From positions 33,544 through 97,543 of IMG/VR virus record IMGVR_UViG_3300037516_001127: 64,000 nt of DNA; one strand, written 5' to 3'. Positions 10,397 through 42,550 of this stretch are shown piece by piece (position 1 is the first letter of the stretch; each line of letters begins with the position of its first letter). The position numbers were made by a program, and so were the translations under genes. A model generated the notes under the pieces. It made no database searches. It worked only from the letters and a program-made list of their open reading frames with translations, and had not been told where the DNA came from. The DNA is from a virus.

Positions 10397-10400
10397 AACC

Positions 10401-15186: not shown

Positions 15187-15549
15187 TTATCTTCTGGTAC
15201 CTTTAGAACGACGAGTAGCCATTTCATCAGATGGCACCCGCTTAGAGATACGATCACCTACAGAATCAGAAACCTCCGGCCCGCCAGGACCCTCAGCCAT
15301 ATACTCCCCAGGAGACCCAGATACATACTTCTGATAATCCCTAAAAAGCTCCTTAGACTTATCACTCCTACTGTAATAATTTAAAGCCGCCAAATATATG
15401 TCCCTCTTCTCCTCAAAATTTTCAGAATCAGAAGAAAAAACCTCAGCCAAACCCAAAATATGAGAACGCTTAAAAGCAGAACCAATGTTAATAAACTTAA
15501 CCAGGATGCTCATCTTTTCTACGTCTGTAAATTCGCTCATGCTTCCCAC
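15187..15549 (-). CDS. Small hypothetical protein coupled to the 1332-aa gene
   Basis: Overlaps the stop of 15537..19535. Confidence 0.7.
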   Translation of the reverse strand: MGSMSEFTDVEKMSILVKFINIGSAFKRSHILGLAEVFSSDSENFEEKRDIYLAALNYYSRSDKSKELFRDYQKYVSGSPGEYMAEGPGGPEVSDSVGDRISKRVPSDEMATRRSKGTRR

Positions 15550-19535: not shown

Positions 19536-19798
19536 GGTTCAAAAATCCCAACTTTGATTAAGCCTTTAACTTCGTCAGCTACTTCGTCCTCAAAGATTTC
19601 GTAAAGCTCTTTATTTGAGTAACCCCAGCCGGAACCGATGAGCGGCTCAAGTTTCTTAATATTTTTGATGTAAATACGTTTCGCCCATTCGGTTGCTTCT
19701 TGTTCATAAGCTGGATCGCAGTAAACTTCGACGCCTTTGTCATTTTCGACAAATGCGTACATGAGTGTCTTGTTGTAAATAATTTTTCCAATTCTCAT
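19532..19798 (-). CDS. Small hypothetical protein
   Basis: AGGAG RBS, GTGA overlap with the next gene. Confidence 0.75.
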   Translation of the reverse strand: MRIGKIIYNKTLMYAFVENDKGVEVYCDPAYEQEATEWAKRIYIKNIKKLEPLIGSGWGYSNKELYEIFEDEVADEVKGLIKVGIFEP

Positions 19799-19837: not shown

Positions 19838-22800
19838 TCAGACTGCACCATTTGGAATAATTGATTCCAGAATAGAATCAGGATCTGTATCCAAAATCCA
19901 TTGTATACGATCAGCGGTAGTGCTTACCGATTCGCTCGCCGTAAAGTCGGCACCTGCACCATACATGATTTCAGCTATAGCAGCGCTCACCTCTTTAGCA
20001 GAATCTGCGTCGCGTAGACGACCCTGCGCCCGCTGAATAGCACTTATGAGCTCTGCTCTGGTTTCAACCCAGTTGTCACGACCGGGTCCACTACGTTTAT
20101 AAATTTCCAAAACAAGATAATTAGTTCTTCTACTGCCACCCTCGGCGCTATGACTCCATTCGCTAAGAGTAGTCCATTGGGGATCGTGGGGGTTAAACCC
20201 TGCCCCAAATCCCATTCCGTGATCAATTGGGATCAGGCTAACTCTACCTTCAGCATCCCGTGTGCTCATGATGTTAGCTATGTGTCGGTCGTCGTTAAGG
20301 ATTGTCCAGTCTAGCAGAGTCATTGATATTAGGTCATCTGCCCCAATATCGGTTGGTTGTCCTGCTATACCCATAGAGACATCGTCACCAAAACTGTTTT
20401 GAGCTAATTCGATAACGATTGGCCTGGCAACAGAACCAGTATTACCTACCCCATATTCGCGATGAATAATGGGCACGCCATCAATGGGTGCTTGTTCGAC
20501 AGGCCGGGGGGCACCCCATCTGAATGAGCTTGTAGCGAACCCAAATCTTTCAGCAATATGTGCTCCGAGCATTTCAGAAAAATCTTCACGAATGCCAGTA
20601 GAGACACTATTTCCGTATTTGATGGCGATACGTTGTTTTGTTTCACGGTCATAGAACATTTGTATGCCGTTAGCGCCTTGATCCGAACCGCCGATTGGGA
20701 GGAATCTTTCGCTCATAGGGTTATCAGCAATAAAGTCGATTAGTTCTTGTTTGTCCTCTTCCCATACCCTGACTTGATCAGGGCGAGTAGGTTTACGGTC
20801 ACCCCTCTCCGTAACTATCATTGCATCTAGATCTGATTTAGCTAGAATGGTTTCAGCATCAGAAGCATCCAATTGATCTACATATGTTTGAATATCTTCC
20901 GGGTCAACATACGTTGAATACCTTGGCAGTTCTAAAGACTCAACGTCAACACTATTATCAACAATTGAGTTGGCAAGAAGATCATCAGGGACCTCAGACA
21001 AAGCGCCACCACCCGAAACATGATCCTTAGCTTCGGCAGCATTATGGATACCAGGTTCGCCCTCAGCAGGTGTCGCTACCTCGCCTGGCAAGTGGAAACC
21101 GGCAGCGTCAACGCCACCGAGTTTAGCGTCCAACCCGTCATCAACTTTTTGGGCTAAACCTGTAGCCGCTTCACGGGCTTTAGAAGTAGATGCGGTAGAT
21201 GGGTCAGAAATACCTTCTGGTTTAGGTGGATACATTTCGTTGCGTGTACGAACGTTACGCTCTTCAAGCCTCTGGATGTGGTCCATGAGAGCTTCGGCTG
21301 CAGGTACGTTATTACGCTCCATCAGTTCCGATGCTTGAACCCAGAGTTCCCGAGCGTATTGTTCGCTATCAAAAATGCTTATAGGGCTTTTACCGTCAAC
21401 TATTGTGTCAACACTAGTTTTGATGCTTTGAACTAGTTGTTCTTGCTGCTCGGCTTCAGCTTTGGCTTGGGCTTCTCGTTCGTTAACGTCTCGTGCTAGT
21501 CGGCTAGAGGTATCTACACGATCAGCGATATCCGAAGTGACATTTCTAGGTGTGGGATCGACCGCATCTGGGGTCGTCGGAGCAGGAACTACGTCTGGCA
21601 CAGCAGCTTGCGCTTTTTCTATATCGTCTAGTTTCTGCTGCTCATCTTTAAGGCCAGCGTCAATAAGCTTGTCTATCATTTGACCCACCCGCATCTGGTC
21701 ACGTTGCAGGTAAGTGTTTCCAGGTTTGCGGTATGCCCTAAGTTTCTCTAAGAGCTCTTTATAAGATTCGCCACCTACCGCAGGATCGCTGATAGCTGCA
21801 TCAATTTCTTGTGTGAGGCTTTCGAATCCTTCGTTGTCAAATTCTGGTGTGCTAGGTGTTTCTGGTGGCCTTGGTGGTACCGTCCGGCCTTCTGCCTCTA
21901 TTGGCGGTACTTCTGGTGCAGGTCCAAGAGATGGGGGTGTTTCGATAGGCTGGTATTGGTCTATTACTTCTGAGGGTTGGATTGCCTCGGGTGCCGCTTG
22001 TGGTTGTCCTGGGGGGTTGGCAAATGCTTCCCAGTCTGGTGGAGCGTATTGGCGTGGGGTTTCAGTGGCGGCAGGGGTTTCTTGTGGTGACGCAGCAGGA
22101 GTTGAATCACCCCAGATATCGTCTTCAATTTTGAGCGGTTGAGGGATGTAGGTGGCTTCAGGGGTTTCAGTTTTTGGTTGCTCGGGTTCAGGTTTAGGTT
22201 CAATCCTAGGTTCAGGTTTAGGCTTCTCGGGCTTTACTTTTCTGCCTATCTCAAACCCTTTATTTACTTCAGGATCTCTATCTGAACGGGTTGATAAAGC
22301 TCTTTTTAAACTCTGATCAAACTCTGGATTCTCCCTAAAAAAATTGGCTAGGTCTTCCTCTGTAGTAGTGCCATCAAGTAGGCCTGCTCCGAGACGGTCA
22401 TATTCTTTTGCCCAATCAGTATCATAAGAAATTACACCCGTCTCATCGCTATTGACTTTAGGATTGCCATTAGCGTCAACCGAACGGAAAAGTGCTCCTG
22501 GAAGATTGGTATCATTGATACCTTCAGCTAGTTCGGCTCCAATCTCCTCACCTCCCAGGAACTCAGCTAAACGCTGCTCGCGAGTTAAACCGAGTTCAGG
22601 ATCTCGGCCCTCTGCGCCTCTAACATGTCCTGCTATTCTGCTTATAGCTTCAGAACGTTCATCAGGAGTCAAATCATAATTATCTACTTCGTATTCGACC
22701 GCACCAGCTTGTTGATCCAGTGGCAAAATTTGTGCAGCATTTACAGTTTGTAGTTTCTGAAATTCCTCTTCAGGTATATCAACATAACGTACTCTTCGAA

Positions 22801-25495
22801 CAAGGTCCTCAGGATCTTGATATGAGGTTTCACCTGTCCGGGGATCAGTGACAAGCTCTTGAACACCATCTGGCAACTTGCCAAAAGCATGACCTTCAGC
22901 CCTTCGCGCGTCTTCAGCCCACCACATTCCCGTGTACTGCTCTTCGTCTACACCATTCGTATACCGTGTTGAACCCAACGGGGTTCCCTCAGAATCAACA
23001 ATATCCCCCCTGAACAAACGGCGATAACCCTCAGGGATAGGCGGCAAACCATTCTGCGCTTCCACAACATCCGGCTGCGGTGGAGCCACAGGCAGATTCG
23101 TTACGTCATCTAGCGGTTTATCCCCAAAAGGACTTGGCCCAACAGGATTTCCGTCTTTATCTAGTCCGAGTTTTTCACGGAGTTCGATTAGGCGTCGGGT
23201 TCGACGCTCTTGAGGTGTTTCCCCTGGTGGGCCGTCTTGAGGGGTTTCAGGTGTATTTTCGGGTTCGTTATCGTTTCCACTAGTAGGTTTACGCGGTGGA
23301 CGTTTAACCGGCTTTACTTCGCCTTCGGGGGTTTCACCCTCGATCAGGGGAGTTACGTTTTCTTCACGATCGCGTTCTAAAGTCGCACGAATCCGCTCAG
23401 CTCTTTCACGGTTACGTTTCTGAGCAGCAGTTTCCTTAGGCTTCTCAACGAAAGGATTGGGACCCTCTTCAGGTCGTTCCGCTGGAGGCTCAATACCCTC
23501 AAAAGGATTCGGAGGCCCTTCAGGCTTATCCGCTTCGGGGACATCACCTTCGCCCTCAAGCAGGGGAGTTATGTTTTCTTCAGCACCTTCAGGCGGCTTT
23601 AGCCTTGCCTGAATCCGTTCGCGCATTTCCCGATTACGCTTTTGGGTAGCAGTTTCCTTAGGCTTGACAGGTTCGGGGGGAACTTCAGGAGCGGCCTGTG
23701 GTTCGCCTGACTCAGGGGTTCCGTCGGGCTTGTCAGCTTCGGGAACATCACCTTCAGGCTTGTCAGCTTCAGGGACATCACCCTCAAGCAAGGGGGCTAC
23801 GTTCTCTTCACGATCGCGTTCTAAAGTCGCACGAATCCGCTCAGCTCTTTCACGGTTACGCTTTTGGGCACGCGTCTCTTTGGGCTTTGGTGGTTCTTCC
23901 GGCCCACCCGGCTCAGGAGTCGGAGTCTCCTCTGGCTCAGGAGTCTCTTCAGGAGTACCTGGCTCAGGTTCACCCTCTGGTGGCTCTTCAGGGTTTGGAA
24001 TCTCCTCACGGGCACCAGGTTCAGGAGGAGCCTCAGGAGCTGGAGTCTTCTCCGGCTCACCTGGCTTAGGAGTCTCTTCAGGCGGAGCTTCAGGTGGCTC
24101 TTCTGGTTTACCGGGTTCAGGAGTAGCTTCAGGTTTATCCTCAGGAGCAGCTTCGGGCTCACCCTCTGGAGTCTTTTCAGGAGTTGCCTCAGGAGTTCCT
24201 GGCTCAGGAGTCGGAGTCTCTTCAGGAGTCGGCTCAGGTTCACCCGGCTCAGGAGTCGGCTCAGGCGTAGCTTCAGGCGGAGCTTCAGGCTTACCCTCAG
24301 GCTTACCCTCACCCTCGCGTTCGCGTCGCATCATCTCCTCAAAATCTTTGAGGTCCTGCTTCGCTTTCTCCCTCTCCTGCTTCGCTCTCTCCTTTTCCTC
24401 CTTTATTCTCTCCCTCTCCTCTTTCTCCCTCTCCTTTAGCCATTCATCAGATTCTCTATCACGTTTGAAATATTTTTTATCAAGATATTCTGCTATCTGA
24501 TCCAGATCTTCAGAACTATAAGGATTTTCATTATTACGCTTCTTAATCCAATCTAACCATGCGTCAATTTCCGCAAGATCCCTGTCTCGTTCTAAGAAGT
24601 CGCTACCACCAAACGAAAGTCGTCTAGCTTCCACCTTCCGTCTTGCCTCTTCAAGAAGCTTCTTAACCTCACGTTCCTTTTCCTTATCCCTAACAACAGG
24701 CTTACCTTCCGGCTTACCCGGCTCAGGACCATCTTCAGGAGGATAAAGATCTTCCGGTTCAGGCGTTGAAGGCGTATCAACCCAAGGATCTTCCGGTCCA
24801 GAACCACCAGAATTTGGCATATTCGGGTCATTCGCCCAAACAGTCGGCGCATCAGGATTATTAGGATCATAATTAGGGTCCCAAGGACGATCAGAAGGAT
24901 TATGGGTAGCCATATATCGGTCATAAATAATCTGAGCATTTGCTTGTTCGCCTGAATCACCAAGGATATTCCTTCGGTTGCCAGACTCATAAAGAGCTCT
25001 AGCTCTAGCCGGGCTATAAGCACGACCGCTACCAGGTGTAGGAGGTGGAGTCGTACCCCCAGGAGCGTTAGGAGGTGGAGTTGCACCCCCACCAGGATTA
25101 TTGGTGCCACCAGGATTGCTGGTACCACCGCCCCCAGGACCACCACCACCCGGGTTATTAGGCCCACCACCACCAGGAACGCCACCACCAGGAACACCAG
25201 GCCGCTCCTGAGTCGTACCCTCCTGAACTAAACCATCAGCATCAGCATCAGCAGCATTAGGATCATAAGCAGCAGGACGCTTCCCCCCGCCACCACCACC
25301 GCCAACACCATCACCATCACGCCTAAAAGCCTCACCAATAGCCTCAGCTAAACTCCCACCACCACCACGACCACCACCACGACCACCCCCACCAATACGG
25401 CGAAGAATACCCATACCAAACATCTTCGCTTCAACAGCATCATCAGACGAATCAAGCGAAGCGTTAATCCGATCCTCAATTGGGACATCACCCAT
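19838..25495 (-). CDS. 1885-aa putative virion-packaged protein: shared motif, Pro/Glu linker, ART-like segment, C-terminal HipA/PI3K-like kinase
   Basis: YDPNAADADADGLVQEGTTQERP; IAIKY..EMLGAHIAERFG; LLDWTILNDDRHIANI; IPIDHG. Confidence 0.75.
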   Translation of the reverse strand: MGDVPIEDRINASLDSSDDAVEAKMFGMGILRRIGGGGRGGGRGGGGSLAEAIGEAFRRDGDGVGGGGGGGKRPAAYDPNAADADADGLVQEGTTQERPGVPGGGVPGGGGPNNPGGGGPGGGGTSNPGGTNNPGGGATPPPNAPGGTTPPPTPGSGRAYSPARARALYESGNRRNILGDSGEQANAQIIYDRYMATHNPSDRPWDPNYDPNNPDAPTVWANDPNMPNSGGSGPEDPWVDTPSTPEPEDLYPPEDGPEPGKPEGKPVVRDKEKEREVKKLLEEARRKVEARRLSFGGSDFLERDRDLAEIDAWLDWIKKRNNENPYSSEDLDQIAEYLDKKYFKRDRESDEWLKEREKEERERIKEEKERAKQEREKAKQDLKDFEEMMRREREGEGKPEGKPEAPPEATPEPTPEPGEPEPTPEETPTPEPGTPEATPEKTPEGEPEAAPEDKPEATPEPGKPEEPPEAPPEETPKPGEPEKTPAPEAPPEPGAREEIPNPEEPPEGEPEPGTPEETPEPEETPTPEPGGPEEPPKPKETRAQKRNRERAERIRATLERDREENVAPLLEGDVPEADKPEGDVPEADKPDGTPESGEPQAAPEVPPEPVKPKETATQKRNREMRERIQARLKPPEGAEENITPLLEGEGDVPEADKPEGPPNPFEGIEPPAERPEEGPNPFVEKPKETAAQKRNRERAERIRATLERDREENVTPLIEGETPEGEVKPVKRPPRKPTSGNDNEPENTPETPQDGPPGETPQERRTRRLIELREKLGLDKDGNPVGPSPFGDKPLDDVTNLPVAPPQPDVVEAQNGLPPIPEGYRRLFRGDIVDSEGTPLGSTRYTNGVDEEQYTGMWWAEDARRAEGHAFGKLPDGVQELVTDPRTGETSYQDPEDLVRRVRYVDIPEEEFQKLQTVNAAQILPLDQQAGAVEYEVDNYDLTPDERSEAISRIAGHVRGAEGRDPELGLTREQRLAEFLGGEEIGAELAEGINDTNLPGALFRSVDANGNPKVNSDETGVISYDTDWAKEYDRLGAGLLDGTTTEEDLANFFRENPEFDQSLKRALSTRSDRDPEVNKGFEIGRKVKPEKPKPEPRIEPKPEPEQPKTETPEATYIPQPLKIEDDIWGDSTPAASPQETPAATETPRQYAPPDWEAFANPPGQPQAAPEAIQPSEVIDQYQPIETPPSLGPAPEVPPIEAEGRTVPPRPPETPSTPEFDNEGFESLTQEIDAAISDPAVGGESYKELLEKLRAYRKPGNTYLQRDQMRVGQMIDKLIDAGLKDEQQKLDDIEKAQAAVPDVVPAPTTPDAVDPTPRNVTSDIADRVDTSSRLARDVNEREAQAKAEAEQQEQLVQSIKTSVDTIVDGKSPISIFDSEQYARELWVQASELMERNNVPAAEALMDHIQRLEERNVRTRNEMYPPKPEGISDPSTASTSKAREAATGLAQKVDDGLDAKLGGVDAAGFHLPGEVATPAEGEPGIHNAAEAKDHVSGGGALSEVPDDLLANSIVDNSVDVESLELPRYSTYVDPEDIQTYVDQLDASDAETILAKSDLDAMIVTERGDRKPTRPDQVRVWEEDKQELIDFIADNPMSERFLPIGGSDQGANGIQMFYDRETKQRIAIKYGNSVSTGIREDFSEMLGAHIAERFGFATSSFRWGAPRPVEQAPIDGVPIIHREYGVGNTGSVARPIVIELAQNSFGDDVSMGIAGQPTDIGADDLISMTLLDWTILNDDRHIANIMSTRDAEGRVSLIPIDHGMGFGAGFNPHDPQWTTLSEWSHSAEGGSRRTNYLVLEIYKRSGPGRDNWVETRAELISAIQRAQGRLRDADSAKEVSAAIAEIMYGAGADFTASESVSTTADRIQWILDTDPDSILESIIPNGAV
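23340..24320 (-). repeat. Intragenic repeats: 3x KPKETxxQKRNRExxERI..EENxxPL, 3x EGDVPEADKP, PEP/ETP tract
   Basis: Near-identical DNA copies at ~23340-23445 and ~23780-23885, a diverged copy at ~23560-23665; PE-rich tract ~23900-24320. Confidence 0.85.
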
Positions 25496-25497
25496 AA

Positions 25498-25677
25498 CTA
25501 ACCCTCATCAACAGAATCAGAACCCAAAGTAGCTGGCATATCCAGAATAGCCTGAATCTCAAGCTGAACCTTAGGGTCCTCCAGAATAGCCTGCTGAGAA
25601 TAACGATGAGGAATCATAGAAAGCTTCGCAACACGTTCCCAATTCGTATTTTTATTCAAACCTGAAAACGAAGTCAC
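25498..25677 (-). CDS. Small hypothetical protein (59 aa, not in ORF track)
   Basis: GTG 25677 after AAAGG; MTSFSGLNKNTNWERVAKLSMIPHRY...GSDSVDEG; fills the gap almost exactly. Confidence 0.7.
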   Translation of the reverse strand: MTSFSGLNKNTNWERVAKLSMIPHRYSQQAILEDPKVQLEIQAILDMPATLGSDSVDEG

Positions 25678-25687
25678 AAATCAACCT

Positions 25688-28207
25688 TTATCTAGCCGCA
25701 CGAACAGGGGGAGTCCAGAATACTGGCTCAGCTTCAAAAAGCTTCAAAAGATCATCTGGATCAATATCAGTAACCTCTTTAAGTCTAGACGCAAGACCAC
25801 CCGTCACTTTACGCATATCGTCTTCAACTTCATTTCTAGCAGCATTCAATATCCGGCCAATTGCCTCATTTATCTCCAAAGCTGAATCGGCTTCCCTCAG
25901 AGAAGCCTGCGCCGCACGAATAGCAACCAGAAGATCGGCCTTACTCAGAGTATCTGCAATACCATTTTTGTCATGAGTCAAAATTTGTTGAATACGACCC
26001 ACCATATTCCGATTGTCTTGCATCAGGCCGCCAGTCAATCCATTCACAGGGTCAGCAATCGATTCACGCTCATCCATATTAGAAATGCCATGATCAATCG
26101 GCACAAACCATGCCATATCACCATCAGGATTCTCACCAACAAAATAATTTCCATAATGCCGATCCCGATTTTGGATAATCAAGTCCAAAAGCAAACCAGA
26201 AACAAGAGAATCAGCAGAAGCCTGCATCGGATACCCAGAACCAATAGCAATATCCAAACTCAAACCATCAGCAGGATCACCCGACCGATTCGCATAATTA
26301 TGCAAAAGCTCAAAAACCATTGGCCTAACAGTTCGCGGTTGCACCGCTTGCGTAGGAAAACCTCCAACCGGAGGAGCACCACCCCAACGCATCGACCCAT
26401 AAGCAAAACCTAACCGCTCAGCAATATGCGCACCCAACATTTCGTTAATATCTTCATCTGGGAAAACTGAAGTACCAAAAGCATACTTAATACCGACACG
26501 CTGCTGACTAACCCGGTCGTAATACATCACCACACCGTTAACGCCAGCTCCTCTACTGAGAGGAATAAACCTGCCAGCGATCTCACTATTAGACACTCGT
26601 TCGGCACGCTCAAGAGCAGCTAAAAATGGATGCAAATCATCCGGTGGCGGCCACTTAAAATCCGTTAAATCGACAGGGTCGTACTTTATTATCTGATCCG
26701 CACGATCAATCCCAGCTTGCAAATCGTTCTGCATTAAAACATTGCTAAAAATTGCTTCAACAAGAAAATCGTCAGGAACCTCAGATAAAGCACCACCATC
26801 AGCTAAATGCTGAACCGCACCCTCTAAATCCATTCCACCATCAACAACAGGGATCTCAACAGGCAAATGGAAACCCTCAGGGCTTCTAAGACCCAAAACG
26901 CGATCCGCGCCTTTAACAACGCTAGTCCTAGGCATCAAACCCTGACGGGCAGGCCTAAGTTCCCCATTTGCTGAGACTGATTCGTCGCGAGAAGGCCCAT
27001 CGTATTCTCTGCCCTTAGCGACCTTAGCGTAAATTTCATTAACAAAGTCCATGAGCATGACTTCTTGATCTGCGGAGATATTAGGCATTTGTTCAGCGAC
27101 GGCTTTATCGCGTTGAGCAATCCACTCGTCGAAACGTTTTTTATTCTGGTCCCTGATATCAGCATTAATTGCATCTATGCGATTACGTTCCGCACCATAA
27201 AGCTTATTATTTTCATAAATTGCAGGCTCAACCTGAAGCTCGTATTCTCGTTGATATTTTGTTTTGCCTCCAGGCCTTTGACCCCCCCTAGTTTTGATAT
27301 ATGGATCTAGCTTCTTTAATTCATCCGCCCTAGCTTTAAGTCGATCCCGTTCAGCGTTTATCTTGTCCCACTCAGGACCCTCAAAAGAAGCTCTTTTTTG
27401 CCGCAGACGTTGAGGTTCAGGATTCTTATCCACCCACTTTTTCTGAAGAAACACCTTATTTTTATTTCCGTTATTATAAATATGGGTTTTTATAGTTCTT
27501 GCTAACTCCCTCAAAGATTCAAGATCAGCAGCTGATCCAGACTCCTCAAACTTTTTTGTTAGCTTGTCATATTCTTTTTCTAAGCTATCAGCCAAACTTA
27601 TAGGTTCACGCTCCTCAGGCTTAGCGACAATAGGCTCAGCCGGAACAGGTGTACTGCGAGTACGAACCTTACGAGCGTTTCGCATAACAGCAGACCTTCT
27701 AGGCGCAGGACGCATAGCAGGCACACCAGGAGTAGCAGGACGCTCCCACGGCGTACCATCCTGAACCGTATTATCTTTACCAGGATCACCATTTATAGCG
27801 TCAGGATCATACGCCTCATCCTCATCACCAATAGCACGACCCAAAACTTTCAAACTAATAGGCGCTAAAGAAGACTTGACCCTAAGATTAGACTTAGCTT
27901 TCTTACGCTTAGAAACATTCTTCTCTAACCAAAAAAACATTTCCTCATCAAACCCATGAGCAACCATATAATCGCTAACCTCAACAGGCATAGCCCTACT
28001 CATAGAATCACCCAAAAATCTTATAATCTTAAAAAGCATTACCTCTTTTTTAGACTCAGGATCTAAACCAGGTTGAGACTCCAAGGAACCAACGTACTGA
28101 GACATCTGCCGTATAAAACTTTTACCATTCTTAGACCAATCCCAGACACGATTCTTACGGGTATCATAAGGACGATCTTTAACAATCAGATTAGATTTAG
28201 CAGGCAT
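25688..28207 (-). CDS. Putative virion-packaged protein: shared motif plus HipA/PI3K-like kinase
   Basis: YDPDAINGDPGKDNTVQDGTPWERP; GAGVNG, VGIKY, LLDLIIQNRDRHYGNY, VPIDHG. Confidence 0.78.
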   Translation of the reverse strand: MPAKSNLIVKDRPYDTRKNRVWDWSKNGKSFIRQMSQYVGSLESQPGLDPESKKEVMLFKIIRFLGDSMSRAMPVEVSDYMVAHGFDEEMFFWLEKNVSKRKKAKSNLRVKSSLAPISLKVLGRAIGDEDEAYDPDAINGDPGKDNTVQDGTPWERPATPGVPAMRPAPRRSAVMRNARKVRTRSTPVPAEPIVAKPEEREPISLADSLEKEYDKLTKKFEESGSAADLESLRELARTIKTHIYNNGNKNKVFLQKKWVDKNPEPQRLRQKRASFEGPEWDKINAERDRLKARADELKKLDPYIKTRGGQRPGGKTKYQREYELQVEPAIYENNKLYGAERNRIDAINADIRDQNKKRFDEWIAQRDKAVAEQMPNISADQEVMLMDFVNEIYAKVAKGREYDGPSRDESVSANGELRPARQGLMPRTSVVKGADRVLGLRSPEGFHLPVEIPVVDGGMDLEGAVQHLADGGALSEVPDDFLVEAIFSNVLMQNDLQAGIDRADQIIKYDPVDLTDFKWPPPDDLHPFLAALERAERVSNSEIAGRFIPLSRGAGVNGVVMYYDRVSQQRVGIKYAFGTSVFPDEDINEMLGAHIAERLGFAYGSMRWGGAPPVGGFPTQAVQPRTVRPMVFELLHNYANRSGDPADGLSLDIAIGSGYPMQASADSLVSGLLLDLIIQNRDRHYGNYFVGENPDGDMAWFVPIDHGISNMDERESIADPVNGLTGGLMQDNRNMVGRIQQILTHDKNGIADTLSKADLLVAIRAAQASLREADSALEINEAIGRILNAARNEVEDDMRKVTGGLASRLKEVTDIDPDDLLKLFEAEPVFWTPPVRAAR

Positions 28208-28209
28208 AA

Positions 28210-31200
28210 CTATGAACGCTGCCTTTCATACAAAACGTTATCATCGCCATCGCCGATCACAAGAACTTCATATTCACTTATACACCCAAAGCCAAGCATT
28301 GACAAAGAAAAAAGTCTTGATCGAGGCACGTCCATATGGAAAGTGTGTTCACCAAAAGCTTGTTGGGTAATCGTGGCAAACGAAGATAAACCATTCCATT
28401 GGGCTATAGCATCTACAGCCCAACCCTTCCCAACCGAAGCATCCAAAGCCCACGAGATATCACCATCAGTCGAATCAAGCGATCTTAAAATAACCATCAA
28501 ATCGCCCACTTCATTTCTAGCACTATCATGTGCTGTCTGAGCCGACCTGTATCTTTCCAAAAGCAACGTTTGAGCAGGGCTTAAAAATTCACCAGCCCGT
28601 GCAGCTCTGACAGTCTCCGCCCATAGAGGATTAGCATAAATTTTTTCTAATTCATCACCAAGCAACTCTTTGTTCTGCTCAGTCAAATTAAGCTCATCGA
28701 CAGTTGCAGTTCTTTTTTTCTCAATTTCCATTTGTAACTTTTCAGCTCGTGGAGTATCAGCAATTCTGTCTGGTCCTACAGTCATTGCACGACTAAGCCG
28801 AACTATTCCATCTTCAGTTATTCCCATATTTTCTAAATGGTTTTGAGTCGTCGAATAAATTGCTTTAGCTAAAATCTGGTAATCATTAGCAACTTGTTCA
28901 AGATCTTCAACTTTTCCTCCTGGAAGAAACCTAGAAGCACCACGAGGAGGAGTCCTAAAAGCAGAAAAATCTTTTCCAGCACCTCGTGAACCAACCAGTT
29001 TTGCGACAGCCACAGACATCATCCAGGCTTTCCCGGTATCCGAACCAACTGCCCATTTAGAATTCAACTCATCAAAAATAAAAACGGCTTTAGCTCTGTC
29101 GGAAATAGAATCACTAACAATGCCACGGGTTTTAATTTCTACCATAAAAGCATTAAGAAAATCATAATGTTCTACGTCTTTAGAAACCCCAACACTGGAA
29201 TCTATAAACGGGTTTGAAAACGGATCTTCTAACGGATCTACAAGCAGAAAGCCCTCTTGAAACCTATTTACAGATCGAACAAACTCATATGGACTCTCAT
29301 TATCAAAAATCCTATATAAAGCGTCTCTAACAGAAGGATCAGATTCGATCATAGCTAGTAGCGTTTCAGCCGAAGACAATGCTGAAATTTGCTTACTAAG
29401 AGCACTTCCAACCTCACTAAGAACAATAGGCTTATACGATCCGTCATCATTCTTAGGCCTGTCAGGAGCATACAAAATGGAAGATATAAAAGCTTCTTTT
29501 ATATCTTCACGACTAAAATCTTGTGGCAAAGAACTTACATACGATTCAGCTTCATCTCTAGCAATCTGACGTTCCGCCGCATGATCGGCCTCAAGCTGAT
29601 CTCTCCGCTTACGCACATTTTTTAGAAGGTCGCCTAATTTCTTAGAAAGCTCATCACTCCCATTATTAACAGAATCTATTTGCGCCGAAATCTCTTGCAT
29701 TTTTTGCATATCAAAATCGCGATCAGCCTCCCTTCGGGCTTTCAATAAAGATTGCTGTTCATCATATAAAGCATATAGGGCGTCAGATAACTCTAAAGCC
29801 TCTTTATCACCAGCTAATGGCCCATCATCAGGCGTACTCCTATCAGGAATCTGAGATTCCCAATCAGGATTTTCTGCTGCCCGTGCATCAAAATTTCTAA
29901 CAAACTCAGGAATAGGATTATCCTGTTCCCATTTTCTGACAATTTCTTCCACCTTAGCTTGTATTATAATTCTTTCCATCTCAGCACTTGAAGAACCTTC
30001 AAAATTTGGGACTACAAAATCTAAGACAGTAGATAACGTTTCCCTATGCTGAGAATCACTCATTGGGCCATCAACCTTGCTACCCCATGTAGACATATCT
30101 GAAGGATCAAACTCGTCCTCATCAATACCGGGGTCAAGAGTGTTAAGAACTTGAAAGATCTCATGAATGCCAGCAGAACCATTATGAAAATCAGCTTCTT
30201 GGTCCTCAAAAACATCTTTTGGAACAGAGTACAAAGGGTCAACTTTAAGAATTTCGTCAAAAATAGTATCAGGAAGAACAGCCGTAGGATTATTATCTGC
30301 ATCAGGAATATCAAAAATTTTAGACTTTCCAACAAGCATAGAAACACCACTAGCATCAATATCCCTATCAAAAATGATACGAGCGGCAGCAGCTACCGTA
30401 GCGTCATCGTAATTAACTAAAAGTTTGTGCATAGGGTTATAATCAGCCGGGTAGGCGTCCATCTTGTCGACTTTGCCTTCAAGTTCCTGAATAGCTTTTA
30501 CTAAATCAGAGACTTCTTTAGAAACAGGTTCGGGTGGCTCGATAACCGAAACAGCAGGAGGAACCCAGTTTTCAATCTCAGCAATAATCTCAGGGTTATC
30601 AGCTACAAGTATTTCACCCTGCACAGTCCCAAACCGGCCAAGAACCAGTTCATTAGGTACATCTCGCCTAGCCCATCTTGAACCCCACTCGTCGCTGTCC
30701 TTCTCCACAACAGACCAGGAAGTGATTCCTGCATCTTCAGCTTCATATCCTGATTCGTTGCTAGACCCATATCCGAGCCCAGACTGATTTGGTTCGGTTC
30801 CTGTTTCGCTAATTAAATCACCAGAGCGGTACAAGCGAATAGCCGCATATTCGTCTCCGGCGACTTCATCAACATAGCGGCGACGAACTAGTTGCAAAAA
30901 TCGCATAACGTCAGGATCACGTTCCGATTCTGGCGCTTTTAAAGTAACTGAGATAAGCTGGCGCGCACGCATAGCATACTGCCAAGCCCCAAAATTATCT
31001 TCAGTATCACGAAAGTCTTCGTTATCATCAACAATTGACGGATTTGCTTCAAATAAGGCTTGCAGGCTTAGGTATATGTCTCGCTGTGTTGCATTTGCCG
31101 ATTCTTCTGCTGAGCCGAACCACAGCTCTGGCTTCACCAGATAGGCACCCTTATACGCTACGTTTCTTATTAAAGCCCGCTCTTCCGGTGAACCATCAGC

Positions 31201-33459
31201 GAAAATGTCACCTCCCACTCGGCGGTCCCACTCAGAGAGAATTTCCCAAGGCTCTAAATCGGAGAAACTAGCTCGGATTGTGTCTTCTCCAAAAACGCCT
31301 TCGGGAAGGTCCGTATCAACAAACCTGCTCGAAGGATCATTATAAGTATCCAATATCTGCCGAGCAGGACGCAGGCTAGAGAACCCGTCACGAGGAGAAA
31401 GCCGCTCCGAAATCCGCTCCGAAACCAAACTCCCAACACCAGGCTCAGAAACCTTATCCCCATCAAAACTAGAAACCTCAGACACCCGAGGCCTATCAAC
31501 AACTCTCCGCATAAAATCAACAAGCGCCTGCCCAGAATCGGAAAGCCCCTCAGTATCAGCATCCAACATCACAGCAGTAAAAGTCTCAGCAAAAGACTCC
31601 AACTTATTCGTAATAGAATATTGTGATATTTGCTGATTTTTAGGAATATTCAACTGCGTTACAGCATCAATAATCCGTTCAGCTTCCGCTTCCTCAGACT
31701 CGTCAAAGTAACCAGATTTTTTAGCACGATCTAGCGCTAACCGCATATCCTTTACGTTTAACCAGGTCGATTCTGGATCACCAAGCATTACAGATTGCCA
31801 GTCGTCTTCAAGTTGGCTTAACTCCTCCCAACTTTCATCTTGATAGTTATCCCATATATCTTGAAGGGCTTGCATTTCGGAGTAATAGTCAGCTACTAAC
31901 CGATCCCATTCTCTGCTAAGGTCAGTAACCGAAACCATCGGCGTAACATTGTTATTAATGACTTCGTGGAACGCGTGTCCCATCTCATGGACGACAGTAG
32001 CGACATGGTCATCTGGGCCACCTTTAATAAGGAATTCGCCTGTGACCCTTTCGGTCGCATTCGGTTCTGACCTCAGAATATAGGCACCAGTTTTTGGTTC
32101 AAAGTCATCGACAACCCCAAAGGTAACAACACCTTCGTAATATTGCCCAGCGACACCACCCGCCCAGTGAGAACCAGCGTGTGACGCTAAAACCACTAGA
32201 GGAATAGGATTGTCATACTTCTCAAAAAGTTGTGCGATTGGAGAATCAGGACCAAACTCGCTTTCAAAAACACTTTGCAGGCTCTCGGCAAGAGCAATTC
32301 CTTCTGGGGATGATAACGCTGCTACTGCGTTTTCATGACCAAACATTTCCCGATGCCGGTCTTCCCAAAAGGTATCTAAATCTTCATCCGTTTCTAAATC
32401 AGCATTAGGAGCAAGTATATCTTTTGATTCTCTTTCCTCATAAGCTCGTAGAAATTCATAAAAATTAGAAGGATCACCATGAATGGCTTGTTCAAGAAGC
32501 AAATCATCAGAATCCTTATATTGAGAATCTATATAATCACTAATATCTTTTAGATCTAATCTACCGGAATCTGATATAGGAGGATTTGAAACTACATCTT
32601 GCCAGGGGATATCTGGATCTAAATCATCAGAAAAAACTATTTCATCAACCCCTCTCGAACCATACCTTTCGAAAGCTGATTGCAATGCTAAACCTTTGAA
32701 ATAATCTACTGCCCAATCAGGTTCATCAACCTTTAACAGATTATACAGAAGCTCTTCAAATTCTCTATCAGGTAACTCATCAAAATGTGACTGCTGCAAA
32801 AGCAATCGATCTCTCATAACTTGCAATCTGCCCATTGCTGCCTCACGAGGCGAAACAGCAAGCCTGGAACGATCCCAAATCTCTTCATCTTCAGCTAACG
32901 CAGCAGCAATAGTTTCTAAACTTTCACGCGCCAATTCAATGTCTTGCCTAGTTTCCCAGTCTTCATTACCAAATCTAAATTTGGCGTTGAGTTGATCAAG
33001 CCTAGCTTGTATCTCTAATGCGGCAGCTTTGGCTTCCTCTTGCGCCTTTGCGTTATCCTCTTCTTCTACTCTAAGAATTTCATCGAAGTCGGGTTTAGCA
33101 GATCCCTTTTTACGCTTAGCAGGCTTTTTAGGCTTTTTAACTAAAGAAACAAGCTCACGGGCAGGACTATTGTCATCAAGTGGGTTACCCGACAGCACAC
33201 TCCCAGGGACTTCGAGCTTTGGCTTGGCAGGCCGCTCGTGAATTGTCCCATCCTGAATCAACCCATCAGCATCAGCGTCATCAACCACACGGTAAACGGC
33301 AGGACGTAAAACCCTTTTTAAAGGATTCCTACCCCCAGCATTACCGCCACGCCGCCTACCAATACGACTACCTCGAAGACCCCTACCCAAAATTTTTGAT
33401 TCAATATCAACAAACAACTCGTCGACAGTTACGTCATCAATGTCAGTACGTTCAAACAT
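28210..33459 (-). CDS. Polyvalent protein (~1749 aa): shared motif, zincin metallopeptidase, two ART-like domains
   Basis: Start re-called at ATG 33459; DDADADGLIQDGTIHERP; VVHEMGH...ISQYS..ESFAE; IRLYRS..ITSWS..GEILV; VRLSRA..LSSFAT..EYEVLV. Confidence 0.72.
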   Translation of the reverse strand: MFERTDIDDVTVDELFVDIESKILGRGLRGSRIGRRRGGNAGGRNPLKRVLRPAVYRVVDDADADGLIQDGTIHERPAKPKLEVPGSVLSGNPLDDNSPARELVSLVKKPKKPAKRKKGSAKPDFDEILRVEEEDNAKAQEEAKAAALEIQARLDQLNAKFRFGNEDWETRQDIELARESLETIAAALAEDEEIWDRSRLAVSPREAAMGRLQVMRDRLLLQQSHFDELPDREFEELLYNLLKVDEPDWAVDYFKGLALQSAFERYGSRGVDEIVFSDDLDPDIPWQDVVSNPPISDSGRLDLKDISDYIDSQYKDSDDLLLEQAIHGDPSNFYEFLRAYEERESKDILAPNADLETDEDLDTFWEDRHREMFGHENAVAALSSPEGIALAESLQSVFESEFGPDSPIAQLFEKYDNPIPLVVLASHAGSHWAGGVAGQYYEGVVTFGVVDDFEPKTGAYILRSEPNATERVTGEFLIKGGPDDHVATVVHEMGHAFHEVINNNVTPMVSVTDLSREWDRLVADYYSEMQALQDIWDNYQDESWEELSQLEDDWQSVMLGDPESTWLNVKDMRLALDRAKKSGYFDESEEAEAERIIDAVTQLNIPKNQQISQYSITNKLESFAETFTAVMLDADTEGLSDSGQALVDFMRRVVDRPRVSEVSSFDGDKVSEPGVGSLVSERISERLSPRDGFSSLRPARQILDTYNDPSSRFVDTDLPEGVFGEDTIRASFSDLEPWEILSEWDRRVGGDIFADGSPEERALIRNVAYKGAYLVKPELWFGSAEESANATQRDIYLSLQALFEANPSIVDDNEDFRDTEDNFGAWQYAMRARQLISVTLKAPESERDPDVMRFLQLVRRRYVDEVAGDEYAAIRLYRSGDLISETGTEPNQSGLGYGSSNESGYEAEDAGITSWSVVEKDSDEWGSRWARRDVPNELVLGRFGTVQGEILVADNPEIIAEIENWVPPAVSVIEPPEPVSKEVSDLVKAIQELEGKVDKMDAYPADYNPMHKLLVNYDDATVAAAARIIFDRDIDASGVSMLVGKSKIFDIPDADNNPTAVLPDTIFDEILKVDPLYSVPKDVFEDQEADFHNGSAGIHEIFQVLNTLDPGIDEDEFDPSDMSTWGSKVDGPMSDSQHRETLSTVLDFVVPNFEGSSSAEMERIIIQAKVEEIVRKWEQDNPIPEFVRNFDARAAENPDWESQIPDRSTPDDGPLAGDKEALELSDALYALYDEQQSLLKARREADRDFDMQKMQEISAQIDSVNNGSDELSKKLGDLLKNVRKRRDQLEADHAAERQIARDEAESYVSSLPQDFSREDIKEAFISSILYAPDRPKNDDGSYKPIVLSEVGSALSKQISALSSAETLLAMIESDPSVRDALYRIFDNESPYEFVRSVNRFQEGFLLVDPLEDPFSNPFIDSSVGVSKDVEHYDFLNAFMVEIKTRGIVSDSISDRAKAVFIFDELNSKWAVGSDTGKAWMMSVAVAKLVGSRGAGKDFSAFRTPPRGASRFLPGGKVEDLEQVANDYQILAKAIYSTTQNHLENMGITEDGIVRLSRAMTVGPDRIADTPRAEKLQMEIEKKRTATVDELNLTEQNKELLGDELEKIYANPLWAETVRAARAGEFLSPAQTLLLERYRSAQTAHDSARNEVGDLMVILRSLDSTDGDISWALDASVGKGWAVDAIAQWNGLSSFATITQQAFGEHTFHMDVPRSRLFSLSMLGFGCISEYEVLVIGDGDDNVLYERQRS

Positions 33460-33772
33460 CAGAAACACCTTCAGCCCGAGGCTTGACAACAGCTTTATCC
33501 ATAGGCGGATTCATACTTGACAACAAAGAAACAATTTTCTCATCAGCAACATTCTCAAAAACAAAAAACTCTGTAACACTCTGAGAAGAAGGCTGATTAT
33601 GATAAACAGCATCTTTTGGAATATCAAAAAGCTTACTCGAATAGCTAAATGCTTGACCATCCAAATACTCTTCATAGGTACCTGGCTCACGACAAATATA
33701 GGCATGAAAAATGCCCAACTCGGGATGCTTGTAAAAATAAACAATAGGGTAAACAGGTCGTTCAGCAGCCAT
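33452..33772 (-). CDS. Small hypothetical protein
   Basis: Starts 2 nt after the upstream kinase stop, overlaps the next start. Confidence 0.72.
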   Translation of the reverse strand: MAAERPVYPIVYFYKHPELGIFHAYICREPGTYEEYLDGQAFSYSSKLFDIPKDAVYHNQPSSQSVTEFFVFENVADEKIVSLLSSMNPPMDKAVVKPRAEGVSDV

Positions 33773-33774
33773 AA

Positions 33775-35640
33775 CTAGCCCACAATCTCTCGTCGTAACT
33801 GCCGCAAAACTTCGCTTGGCCTATCCTTCAAAGCTTGTAATCTTGCCTCGGCGACTATCCGAACAGCTTCAAGATGCTGCAACTCTTCAGAAGTCAAAAT
33901 TTTTCCTTTAGATGAAATCCGATCAACAGAAAGAATCATATCTAAACTTGTTTCAAGACGCTCAATAGCGTTCTCAACTGCAGCATTAAATTTTCGGGAG
34001 CGTACAGCATCATTCAAAAGATTCAAATTTCTATATTCAAAAGGACGACGCACGGCACTTCTTGCATAATCCTTATATGAAACAGGGGTTACTCTTTCTC
34101 TTTCGGCAAGCTGACCCACAAGCCTTATACCTAGAGTACCCACGACCGGATTTGACCCCCCATACAACAAGCCGTTATCAATCAAACCTAGTCTTAAACG
34201 CCCATCCTCATCTGTTCGAGCCATAAAATTATGCAAATGCCGATCCGTGTTATCAAATATGTAATCCATAACTAGCATTCGAGCCAGATCCCCAGGATCA
34301 ACTTTTTTAGATTTTGCTCCACTTCCGTTTATAGCCCATTCTTCCCATTTGCCAGCAGCGCGACTCGAAGGCTTATGGTCAAATTCCCAATCATCAATTG
34401 ACCTCATCATCATCCAGCGGTACGGCCTAGCAGAACCAGCCCGGTCGACACTTTGACCAACTCTAAAATTGTTTTCACGGTTGCCAAAACCTAAAACCTC
34501 AGAAGCCTTATTGCCAATATTTTCAAGTAAAGCATCATTATTGCCATAACTAGAAACTTTCACATACCAGACATCGTTATTCACCGAGTCAACAACTCTA
34601 AGTACCCGCCAAGGCTTTACACTTGAAAGGTTTCTTTCATCTTTAATTACTTCAAAATTGAATCTCCGATTTTTAAATTTAGTCTTATTACGCATAAGCC
34701 CATTTGGGCCTTCAGCCATAACTAAACTTTCTTTTGTCAACGGAACACCAGAAGGAGTTGCAAGTTCTAAATTTTCGTCAAATAAAACATCAATAATATG
34801 CTCATCGGCAACATCAGTTATATCCCCACCTTTTTCATAAACATGCTTAAGGCCCTTTTGATAATCTTGAATTCCCCATTTCTTAGCCCGTCGCGTTTTC
34901 GGTGCGCCACCTGGATCGATACGCCCGGCAAGCCTCTCTAAAGCTGAAGCAAAGAACTGGCGGCGAGGAGCGTCAGGAACCTGCACAGCAGATGGACCTG
35001 ACCACGAAGAAGGGGGAGGAGGGACATTAACAACAGCCTGCGAAGCACGAGGAGCAGGAGCGCCACGAGCAGCACGCACAGCAGGACTGCTACCACTAGG
35101 AACATCAACAGCATTAGCTATACGGTCAAGTATCCCCTGACGCCTAACAGGCTTCGCAGCACGCCTCTCACGCAGAGCTGCAACCAGGCGGCTAGGACCA
35201 ACAGGACGCTCCCACCGAGTGCCTTCCTGACGCCTCAGATCGCTATCACCATCTCGGGAGTTCGGATCATACCGAACAGGCCTACGCCTAGCCTTGCCAA
35301 ACCCCAAAACCTTGTCTTCAAATCCGTTTAAACGAAAATCAATTGAAGAAACAATTTTCTCGTTATAAAAATCTGACTTACTATCAACAGACCCCTGTTG
35401 ATAACTAAGTTTTTGGAAATCAGCCCACACCGAATCATCCAACGGTTCAGGCCCAGTAACAACCAACGAAGGGTTACTAATCGCCGACTTGATACCCTCT
35501 AAAGACGCAGGTTCCGACTCCGACCAAACAGCAAAATCTTTTAACGTACCAGAACCCGCTGCCAAAATATCAAAAGCATGTTCAATCACAATAGCCTTTG
35601 AACCAGAAAATGGATCAACAATAGTAATAGCATTAGTCAT
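33775..35640 (-). CDS. Putative virion-packaged protein: shared motif plus HipA/PI3K-like kinase
   Basis: YDPNSRDGDSDLRRQEGTRWERP; WYVK..ENIGNKASEVLG; VMDYIFDNTDRHLHNF; LIDNG. Confidence 0.78.
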   Translation of the reverse strand: MTNAITIVDPFSGSKAIVIEHAFDILAAGSGTLKDFAVWSESEPASLEGIKSAISNPSLVVTGPEPLDDSVWADFQKLSYQQGSVDSKSDFYNEKIVSSIDFRLNGFEDKVLGFGKARRRPVRYDPNSRDGDSDLRRQEGTRWERPVGPSRLVAALRERRAAKPVRRQGILDRIANAVDVPSGSSPAVRAARGAPAPRASQAVVNVPPPPSSWSGPSAVQVPDAPRRQFFASALERLAGRIDPGGAPKTRRAKKWGIQDYQKGLKHVYEKGGDITDVADEHIIDVLFDENLELATPSGVPLTKESLVMAEGPNGLMRNKTKFKNRRFNFEVIKDERNLSSVKPWRVLRVVDSVNNDVWYVKVSSYGNNDALLENIGNKASEVLGFGNRENNFRVGQSVDRAGSARPYRWMMMRSIDDWEFDHKPSSRAAGKWEEWAINGSGAKSKKVDPGDLARMLVMDYIFDNTDRHLHNFMARTDEDGRLRLGLIDNGLLYGGSNPVVGTLGIRLVGQLAERERVTPVSYKDYARSAVRRPFEYRNLNLLNDAVRSRKFNAAVENAIERLETSLDMILSVDRISSKGKILTSEELQHLEAVRIVAEARLQALKDRPSEVLRQLRREIVG

Positions 35641-36605
35641 TCGACACCCACAATATTGCCAGTTTTAATAAGTCGAGTTTCTAAAAACTCTAACATTTTA
35701 GCCTCATCCATCACTAAGCCCAACGTAATCAAAGAAGCATTTTCATCAGATTCTAAAACGTTTAACCGCTGGTTGTATGTAGCCCGAATCGTTTTAAAAT
35801 AAGCTTTTTCCGGATCAGACATGACCCCGTCAAGCCCATAACCCTGCTGATACTCATCCCAGTCAAAACCTTTTGCACGTTCCAATAAAGCTTTATACAA
35901 AGACAGAAGAGACTTACGTTGAGTTTGAGAAAGGCCCGTAAACCGGGTTTTAAACCCTTCCCAGGTTAGGTACCCCTCCCCTAGCACGAGACTACCTCTG
36001 TCTTTCAATTCGTCACTAGGCAATCCGGCACCTAAGGCGTACTGGTCAGGCACAACAAAAAGGTTTATTTTTTTGCCGTTCATAACAGGTACCAACGATG
36101 ATGGATTTCTCCGTCTTTGATCAAGTAGGTAATCAGAAATTGCTAATCGCAAAAACTGGTCATCATCAACGTCATGCAACCTAAGACGCTTTGATCGAAC
36201 AATCCGAGGCATCGACTCGGGTGTAGAAAACAGCACCTTGCGAGAAGAACCAGAATCCAGATACCTAACTTTACAAAGAGGTAGCCCAAGCCACTCCCGA
36301 ATGTCGGAAGATACCTTTATCGACAAACCGCCTAATTCACTGTTAGGACTTAAGCGATAATAAGATTCATTTTTACGTCCAGATAAAAGATCTGCCCCAG
36401 TTCCCAAACTGGTAATCTCAAAAGCGTCAGACAACCGAATAGCATCATTAAGAAACTTATCGGGAATCGGATCTATTGAACCGCCATCTAAAAGAAACGT
36501 TACGGCTTGCTTAACGTCTTGAATTTTATCAGGGATTGGCAAATCCGAGACTTCCGTAAAAAAGATTGGATTTATAGCGTTTTCGGCGTTAGGCCCAGTC
36601 CGCAT
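35637..36605 (-). CDS. Degenerate (pseudo)kinase paralog
   Basis: Same pre-kinase motif (LLDGGSIDPIPDKFL); ISDYLLDQRRRN replaces D..DRH. Confidence 0.55.
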   Translation of the reverse strand: MRTGPNAENAINPIFFTEVSDLPIPDKIQDVKQAVTFLLDGGSIDPIPDKFLNDAIRLSDAFEITSLGTGADLLSGRKNESYYRLSPNSELGGLSIKVSSDIREWLGLPLCKVRYLDSGSSRKVLFSTPESMPRIVRSKRLRLHDVDDDQFLRLAISDYLLDQRRRNPSSLVPVMNGKKINLFVVPDQYALGAGLPSDELKDRGSLVLGEGYLTWEGFKTRFTGLSQTQRKSLLSLYKALLERAKGFDWDEYQQGYGLDGVMSDPEKAYFKTIRATYNQRLNVLESDENASLITLGLVMDEAKMLEFLETRLIKTGNIVGVE

Positions 36606-42327: not shown

Positions 42328-42328
42328 A

Positions 42329-42550
42329 CTACTCACTCCCCAACAGGTAGCCATACAGACCAGAAACTAAACCGAAAGTTACAAATCCTGCAGGAAAGTA
42401 AATCAGCCCAGCTCCTAGCGATGTAAAAATAACAAAAAAAAGCATGAAAATGTAAGCAACCATTTCTCGTGGTTCCAAATCCGAATCTCGAAAAATCAAC
42501 TTTTTGTTGACCTTAGAAACTTTATCGTCTTTATCGTCTTCACCTGGCAC
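42329..42550 (-). CDS. Small two-TM membrane protein preceding portal
   Basis: Hydrophobic hairpin; ends 1 nt before the portal ATG. Confidence 0.65.
   Translation of the reverse strand: MPGEDDKDDKVSKVNKKLIFRDSDLEPREMVAYIFMLFFVIFTSLGAGLIYFPAGFVTFGLVSGLYGYLLGSE

Follow-up and report, generated by a model that had tools for sequence, protein, structure and literature searches.

Three predicted atypical kinases and a conserved pseudokinase in the head-assembly operon of an IMG/VR myovirus

The stretch analyzed here, referred to as the window, comprises 64,000 nucleotides (bases 33544-97543) of the 97.5-kb IMG/VR virus record IMGVR_UViG_3300037516_001127, the completeness of which is 66% (CheckV). 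Four genes in the window, designated A, B, D, and E, very probably encode three kinases (A, B, and D) and one pseudokinase (E). They belong to a minus-strand head-assembly operon and are bounded by the genes for an S78 prohead protease and an HK97-type major capsid protein. We lean slightly towards the view that the three kinases, with a pseudokinase that would regulate D, are packaged, processed, and ejected, and that they phosphorylate host targets. Positions are counted from the first base of the window, and the strand is minus unless stated otherwise.

Kinase and pseudokinase genes

The operon runs in the order portal, protease, F, E, D, C, B, A, G, and capsid protein. The interval between the protease and capsid genes contains F (382 amino acids [aa], acidic), E (322 aa), D (621 aa), an open reading frame (ORF) of 106 aa, C (1759 aa), B (839 aa), A (1885 aa), an ORF of 88 aa, G (1332 aa), and an ORF of 120 aa. 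The original prediction was built on eight peptides, and all of them were recovered at their places on the minus strand, in genes A, B, D, and E.

Gene A (19838-25495) encodes a leader, a K/MFG site (the slash marks a putative cut), an N-terminal tag, Gly-rich and Pro/Glu/Thr-rich disordered linkers, a globular part (approximately residues 820-1100), a pre-kinase segment, and a kinase module (residues 1484-1879, 19859-21046), in which K, E, D, N, DRH, N, and IDxG are intact. The kinase module has the same place in the metagenomic representative P0003 (1881 aa, module at residues 1462-1880). Approximately 700 residues of protein A (22100-25400) are low-complexity linker, Gly-rich at first and then Pro/Glu/Thr-rich; in the linker DNA, there are short tandem repeats, and the AT and GC skews are locally reversed.

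Gene B (25688-28207) encodes a leader, a K/VLG site, the tag, a middle part without assignment, the pre-kinase segment, and the kinase module that was used for structure modeling (residues 460-824, 25736-26830). The product of gene D (33775-35640) consists of a leader, a K/VLG site, the tag, the pre-kinase segment, and a kinase module (residues 258-615, 33796-34869) from another deep branch of the family than those of A and B. Gene E (35637-36605) encodes a stand-alone pseudokinase without the tag, made up of the pre-kinase segment, a shortened N-lobe, the loop SDYLLDQRRRNPSS, and C-terminal helices. The catalytic loops were located at residues 1727-1742 of A (20270-20317), 673-688 of B (26144-26191), and 457-472 of D (34225-34272), and the loop of E at the same position is formed by residues 156-171 (36093-36140).

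The likeness among A, B, D, and E is far above chance. By BLAST, A and B were 30% identical over 492 aa of the C-terminal part (E-value 1.5e-44), and D resembled both around the catalytic loop. A profile of the A, B, and D modules recovered these three proteins at E-values of 1e-155 to 1e-187 and the pre-kinase motif of E at an E-value of 0.003.

Kinase fold and family of A, B, and D

A profile of the A, B, and D modules and one metagenomic relative (profile A2) was searched against 1.84 billion representatives of clusters at 50% identity. It matched 602 representative clusters at E-values of ≤1e-3 and 153 at ≤1e-10, and the cluster members among those listed were all metagenomic. The kinase domain was situated at most 40 residues from the C-terminus in 85 of 152 representatives, and protein lengths reached 4,500 aa. 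Eight columns were invariant in a 23-sequence alignment: K130, E145, D231, D238, R239, H240, N243, and D261 (B-module numbering). Among the domain hits having a residue in the respective column, the beta3 Lys was present in 140/140 and the alphaC Glu in 141/143. The catalytic D, R, and N and the Asp of DxG were found in 176/176, and the His in 162/176, the other 14 having Asn or Thr. With the active-site residues intact (A, B, and D each read K-E-D-N-DRH-N-IDxG) and the DRHxxN loop and DFG-like Asp of the PF00454 type present, all three are probably catalytically competent.

The B module was modeled with AlphaFold2 (AF2; predicted local distance difference test [pLDDT] 76.5, predicted template modeling score [pTM] 0.80), and the model displayed a bilobal kinase fold. 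It was used as the query in a VIA search without a Foldseek pre-filter. The top match was CotH (5jda; Z 13.7, 258 residues aligned, root-mean-square deviation 4.7), and further matches included PI4KIIalpha (Z 13.5), CtkA (12.4), HipA (10.3-11.3), PIKKs (10-11), MavQ (10.2), Fam20 (9.9-10.6), and actin-fragmin kinase; nearly all of the best 50 matches were kinases. Foldseek returned HipA, VPS34, CtkA, and PI4KB with probabilities of 0.99-1.0, and the structural neighbors in the Atlas were HipA_C/HipA_2 clusters. A profile search of the PDB was led by FAM20C (E-value 7e-4; motif LDFLxGNxDRH...DxG), followed by FAM20A, PI4KA, CtkA, and type II PI4K, and D had no match among PDB sequences by phmmer. 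An atypical protein-kinase-like fold is well supported for B by the model, and for A and D through their alignment to B. Fold matches, the PDB profile search, and the conserved catalytic residues agree with the earlier description of A, B, and D as atypical kinase domains of the PI3K/PI4K/HipA type.

By sequence, A, B, and D are not assignable to any single named family. PF00454 (PI3_PI4_kinase) matched 19 of the 23 family members over the catalytic loop only. The matches to A, B, and D span only profile positions ~134-177 of 241 (~40 residues) and score below the gathering cut-off of 27.1 bits (D, 26.4 bits, E-value 7.6e-6; A, 20.1 bits, E-value 6.7e-4; B, 13.7 bits); some relatives pass this cut-off, such as P0047 with 52.4 bits. 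HipA_C, HipA_2, and Couple_hipA were not detected by the Pfam scan in A, B, D, or E at E-values of ≤0.1, nor were HipA_C and HipA_2 among the 23 family members at ≤0.01. Among the profiles that the original prediction had named, PI3_PI4_kinase was found over the catalytic loop and below its cut-off, CtkA appeared in the PDB profile search, and HipA_C gave no match. The Fam20C Pfam profile reached D with an E-value of 0.0019 (18.3 bits, below the cut-off of 26.8), and the CotH Pfam profile matched 1 of 23 relatives. No NCBIfam family was found for A, B, D, E, F, G, or the tagged 744-aa protein described below. PHROGs yielded only phrog_3162 (function not annotated), for A and B.

Pseudokinase E and its pairing with D

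Profile alignment identifies E as a full-length homologue of the kinases in which catalytic residues have been lost. E and four orthologues aligned to the kinase alignment with a probability of 95% (hhalign, E-value 2.8e-8), and residues 26-289 of E were colinear with positions 16-374 of 387 in a 79-sequence domain profile (hhalign, E-value 4.2e-8). Without the pre-kinase motif, residues 86-322 were still colinear with profile positions 138-377 (probability 90.6%, E-value 1.3e-6). As controls, eight shuffled sequences gave E-values of 0.09-0.74 and the reversed sequence 0.069. The fourth protein had been proposed to be a homologous pseudokinase, and these alignments bear that out.

The kinase motif LLDxxxxNxDRHxxN reads, without gaps, I-S-D-Y-L-L-D-Q-R-R-R-N-P-S-S in E. 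The first Asp of the loop and the Arg of DRH are retained, and the catalytic Asp, His, and Asn are replaced; across the subfamily of E, the catalytic Asp is exchanged for a variable residue, His for Asn, and Asn for Ser or Thr. The beta3 Lys column is occupied by Arg in E and by Glu or Ala in its relatives. At the DxG position, the Gly is gone, and Asp is found in E itself (D187) and Asn in the relatives. The claim that E lacks both DRH and DxG is correct for the lost catalytic Asp, His, and Asn and has to be amended for D187, which is kept.

The replacement loop is invariant in the four E orthologues (79-91% identity). The motif S-D-Y-L-x-D-x-R-x-R-N-P-S and further invariant positions are also common to relatives of E at only 28-31% identity, and in view of this double conservation E is not a decaying relic. 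The alignments place E in an old conserved pseudokinase subfamily with its own loop. One relative, of 645 aa, is encoded by the distant phage G003 (145 kb, 98% complete) and matched E with a probability of 99.4% (E-value 4e-21) and the kinase profile with 98.3%. A fourth lineage carries the loop variant D-x-R-x-R-T-A-A.

E is upstream of D, and its stop overlaps the start of D by 4 nt (ATGA). An E-type gene overlaps a kinase-domain gene by the same 4 nt in G003 (locus L020, G003:C1:36000-54000; 3283-5220 and 5217-11342), at locus L024 (7632-9572 and 9569-13852; downstream protein against the kinase profile, 95.8% by hhalign), and at locus L025 (7281-9515 and 9512-15805; kinase domain, E-value 6.5e-27), which makes four lineages in all. 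In the sister phage G002, E adjoins D, and two more kinases are present. That this overlap (translational coupling) has been kept in four lineages suggests that E and D are stoichiometric partners; FAM20A-FAM20C and HipS-HipT are the nearest precedents. By analogy, E most likely binds D and regulates or chaperones it, as FAM20A does with FAM20C or HipS with HipT.

Proteins of ~1420 aa with two tandem truncated kinase-like domains (DRHTNN, DRHDQN) are encoded at L020 (11688-15938) and L024 (9569-13852). In G003, the ~1420-aa protein and the E-type protein share another N-terminal motif, G-Y-R-C-P-E-G-x-Q-F-G-G; within the window, a similar G-F-R-C-P-P-G is present only in G (residue 41).

Pre-kinase segment and history of the copies

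The segment preceding the kinase modules is located at 20975-21022 in A, 26762-26809 in B, 34795-34845 in D, and 36450-36497 in E, and has the consensus A-[IV]-x-H-[LV]-x-x-G-G-[DA]-L-[AS]-[DE]-V-P-D-[DE]-[FV]-[LV]. It had been regarded as private to this phage, but 90 of the 152 family representatives, which come from other metagenomic phages, cover it. Judged by these alignments, kinases of this type carry it family-wide as an N-terminal extension. In the B model, the segment consists of two confident helices flanking the GG-x-L-x-x-V-P-D loop (mean pLDDT 89-95, residues 11-50), and structural alignments to PI4K and PIKK begin at residues 1-6 of the model. These alignment starts hint that the segment corresponds to the helices preceding the N-lobe in PI4K/PIKK enzymes.

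The four genes had also been explained by local duplication and divergence. A tree of 135 domains placed A and B, each accompanied by its G002 orthologue, in one small clade with two metagenomic proteins, and D was separated from them by the deepest split. When A, B, D, and their G002 orthologues were forced into one clade (42-row IQ-TREE tree), the cost was 192 log-likelihood units, and the p-value of the approximately unbiased (AU) test was 1e-24. Recent local duplication of all four copies was rejected by the 135-domain tree and the AU test. Local duplication can apply at most to A and B, D being on the other deep branch and E representing an old subfamily. Orthologous kinase modules carry different N-terminal parts in the two sister phages: the A-type ORF has 1885 aa here and 1098 aa in G002, whereas the B-type ORF has 839 aa here and 1659 aa in G002. 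Because of the tree split, the AU test, and the differing N-terminal parts, A, B, and D are interpreted as old paralogues, the modules of which have been shuffled onto different carriers with no recent local burst.

N-terminal tag and candidate cleavage site

The tag, [YF]-D-P-[ND]-A-x-D-A-D-A-D-G-L-V-Q-E-G-T-x-x-E-R-P, occurs in A (25187-25291), B (27725-27829), C (33217-33321), D (35191-35295), G (19104-19208), and a 744-aa protein encoded at 6444-8678 (tag, 8478-8582), and exactly these six copies are present in the 97.5-kb record. No family was found for it in Pfam, PHROG, or NCBIfam. Its residues are DxDxDG-like and possibly bind Ca2+. The tag was also detected near the N-terminus in 16 of the 152 kinase-family representatives from other metagenomes, and there are four or five copies in G002 and one each in G003 and G004.

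The motif K-[IVMSA]-[LF]-G was found once each in A, B, C, D, and G, where it invariably precedes the tag by 10-50 residues. In these five proteins it reads K-[IVM]-[LF]-G (A, 25415-25426; B, 27839-27850; C, 33385-33396; D, 35302-35313; G, 19296-19307). It is also present once in the capsid protein, at residue 99 (G-K-S-L-G-Q; K/SLG at 14738-14749), and once in the portal protein, with no further copy among the 14 head-module proteins that were inspected. In the 744-aa protein, the motif is represented only by a loose variant, K-A-D-F-G-G. HK97 gp5 is cut by its S78-type protease at K103/SLG. As both this site and that of the capsid protein itself match the motif, K-x-[LF]-G is a plausible prohead-protease site, and its copies in the tagged proteins are plausible candidates for cleavage. 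If they were cut by this protease, the tagged proteins would be inside the prohead, since that is where the protease substrates are.

Among the other tagged proteins, C (1759 aa, 28210-33489) showed weak matches to a zincin motif (Peptidase_M3, E-value 0.0097) and a DRAT-type ADP-ribosyltransferase (ART; E-value 0.11), and the 744-aa protein a weak match to GNAT (E-value 0.02), all below the curated cut-offs. GNAT, ART, and zincin are classes listed for injected polyvalent proteins (PMC5512222), and T4 Alt, MuF fusions, and polyvalent proteins have been reviewed as precedents of packaged effectors (PMC5512222).

Proposed role and alternative explanations

The position in the head module, the shared tag, and the HK97-like site suggest that the tagged proteins are capsid-packaged, ejected effectors. 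A, B, D, and the three other tagged large proteins would be made late, recruited into the prohead via the N-terminal module, trimmed by the prohead protease at K/x-[LF]-G, and ejected with the DNA, and the kinases would act on host targets by phosphorylation as soon as the next infection begins.

Several observations weigh against this proposal. The structural matches include lipid kinases (PI4KIIalpha, MavQ) beside protein kinases, and the substrate class is ambiguous. E has no tag, hence the tag logic does not place it in the capsid. In G003 and G004, the tag is single, and the other kinases there have different N-termini. The AF2 model of E, computed from five near-identical sequences, is unreliable (pLDDT 38.7), and the fold of E is read from the profile alignment alone. 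The kinase modules of B, D, and P0018 had no match in 50,697 GenBank phage records (tblastn; E-value ≤0.001 for B and ≤0.1 for D and P0018). Finally, a HipA-family kinase gene lies between the portal and capsid genes in the 'Gratiaviridae', and its late position was taken to favor a late intracellular role over ejection (Benler et al. 2021, PMC8008677).

A more far-reaching version of the proposal is put forward as tentative. The two-gene unit seen in several lineages would couple a pseudokinase to an atypical kinase, the dead copy being either an obligate allosteric partner, in a heterodimer like that of FAM20A and FAM20C, or a protein with a non-kinase activity exerted via the DxRxRNPS loop, as in SelO and SidJ. 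Loading of this unit and of further paralogous kinases into the capsid would depend on a new DxDxDG-type tag, and after injection they would rewire the host by phosphorylation before phage gene expression.

Rather unlikely, in our judgment, is that the kinases are not ejected and act late in the producing cell, where they could modify the host envelope or block superinfection, as suggested for the 'Gratiaviridae' kinase, or phosphorylate head-assembly components, as CotH does with spore-coat proteins. The genes are in a late operon, the kinase of the 'Gratiaviridae' has the same position and has been interpreted by the same argument (PMC8008677), and the best structural match is CotH. However, the leader, the protease-like site, and the tag are also found on unrelated large proteins (those with weak GNAT, ART, and zincin matches), which is the pattern of capsid cargo rather than of cytoplasmic enzymes, and very long disordered linkers are typical of ejected proteins.

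Lipid or small-molecule kinases (PI4K/MavQ-like or of the aminoglycoside/sugar type), acting on the host membrane or envelope during entry, are improbable. The signature of PI3K/PI4K is DRHxxN, no Pfam family other than PF00454 matches recurrently, and PI4KIIalpha and MavQ are among the structural matches (Z 13.5 and 10.2, respectively), but the protein kinases CotH, CtkA, HipA, Fam20C, and actin-fragmin kinase score equally well, the Pfam match is confined to ~40 residues of the catalytic loop, and phosphoinositides are missing from most bacteria.

Very little speaks for E being unrelated to kinases, or a decaying remnant that shares a short motif by chance or recent recombination: the plain kinase-module hidden Markov model finds only the pre-kinase motif of E, BLAST matches E only to B and there in the pre-kinase segment (B 442-501, E 12-72), and the structure model is unreliable, but the motif-free part aligns colinearly at an E-value of 1.3e-6, compared with 0.09 or worse for shuffles, on which an unrelated origin was rejected, the subfamily with its invariant loop is kept at 28-31% identity in other phages, and the overlap with a kinase gene is kept in four lineages.

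Comparison with known systems

The modules share with PI3K/PI4K (PF00454), and type II PI4K in particular, the DRHxxN motif, the metal-binding Asp (IDxG) ~20 residues further on, the bilobal fold, and the helical C-lobe. They differ in that A, B, and D remain below the gathering score, are phage-encoded, and have no recognized lipid-binding or helical accessory domains. CotH, Fam20C, and CtkA are similar in structure (CotH, Z 13.7; CtkA, Z 12.4) or as the best PDB sequence match (FAM20C), and a conserved pseudokinase partner, FAM20A, is likewise known in the Fam20 family. Identity to this group is, however, 9-15%, the Fam20C and CotH Pfam matches are weak and sporadic, and the biological setting is another. 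HipA/HipT belong to the same structural group, and a small partner gene is directly upstream of the kinase gene, as in hipS-hipT; unlike there, no HipB-like helix-turn-helix partner was seen, E is a whole pseudokinase rather than an N-subdomain fragment such as HipS, and the genes are in a head operon.

Kinase domains that end very large phage proteins beside packaging or head genes, and that are discussed as conflict effectors, are known from polyvalent proteins (PMC5512222) and the 'Gratiaviridae' (PMC8008677). In the kinase clade described in polyvalent proteins by Iyer et al. (2017), the C-terminal subdomain has been lost, and an insert separates the catalytic His from the Asp (PMC5512222). 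Compared with that published description only, the present family does not obviously share these features: H240 and D261 have an ordinary spacing of 20 residues, no insert is evident between them, and the chain continues with helices 286-381. Neither report mentions multiple paralogues per genome, a conserved pseudokinase partner, or a tag (PMC5512222, PMC8008677).

As with T4 Alt and the internal proteins of T4, and with HK97 gp5, the enzymes are encoded with head genes and have a putative N-terminal signal that the prohead protease could remove. Unlike the T4 targeting sequence, to which it is unrelated, the tag is downstream of the putative cut, so that the mature protein would retain it. 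Studies of phage protein kinases are few and include those of T7 gp0.7 and 933W Stk. A description of a phage pseudokinase-kinase pair, of several such paralogues per genome, of the tag, or of a comparable kinase/pseudokinase arrangement in a phage head module was not found in a survey of the literature that is incomplete.

The family of atypical kinases to which the modules belong is large, has no name, and comprises no fewer than 602 clusters at 50% identity; nearly all of these are metagenomic, and in about half the domain is at the C-terminus of a protein that is often very large. If packaged and ejected, A, B, and D would be a phosphorylation counterpart of T4 Alt, hitting the host before transcription starts, and the tag, if its proposed function is true, could serve as a marker in the prediction of capsid cargo of uncultured phages. 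As a compact system, the pair of kinase and pseudokinase may lend itself to the study of pseudokinase regulation outside eukaryotes.

Neighboring genes and other observations

The major capsid protein of the HK97 type is encoded at 13715-15043 (phrog_10, E-value 1.4e-53). Its nearest relatives are capsid proteins of Gordonia and Brevibacterium myophages (48% identity), and a tail sheath gene (478-1947) marks the phage as a myovirus. Megablast of the head-region DNA against GenBank phages gave zero matches. Gordonia phage DalanDe, which has the nearest capsid protein, also carries large genes between the portal and capsid genes, and neither the kinase nor the tag was found in it. No family matches were obtained for the three short ORFs among the large genes, those of 88 aa (19532-19798), 106 aa (33452-33772), and 120 aa (15187-15549); they might encode chaperones or immunity proteins or be spurious.

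The portal protein (786 aa, 39994-42354) ends in a MuF/head-morphogenesis domain (residues ~539-782) and is a portal-MuF fusion. In the prohead serine protease (Peptidase_S78; 37809-39896), the protease domain covers residues 25-168, and ~500 more residues with further domains are fused to it. Residues 191-344 match PHROGs labeled 'RNA ligase', and in DalanDe a gene with the same label follows the portal gene. A head-module domain may therefore have been mislabeled.

Two other genes interrupt the structural region, a PAPS-reductase-like gene (4822-5988; phrog_2302, E-value 1.4e-68) and a ribonucleotide reductase gene (11388-13304; phrog_367, E-value 3.7e-127), the latter on the opposite, plus strand between the capsid gene and the gene of the tagged 744-aa protein.

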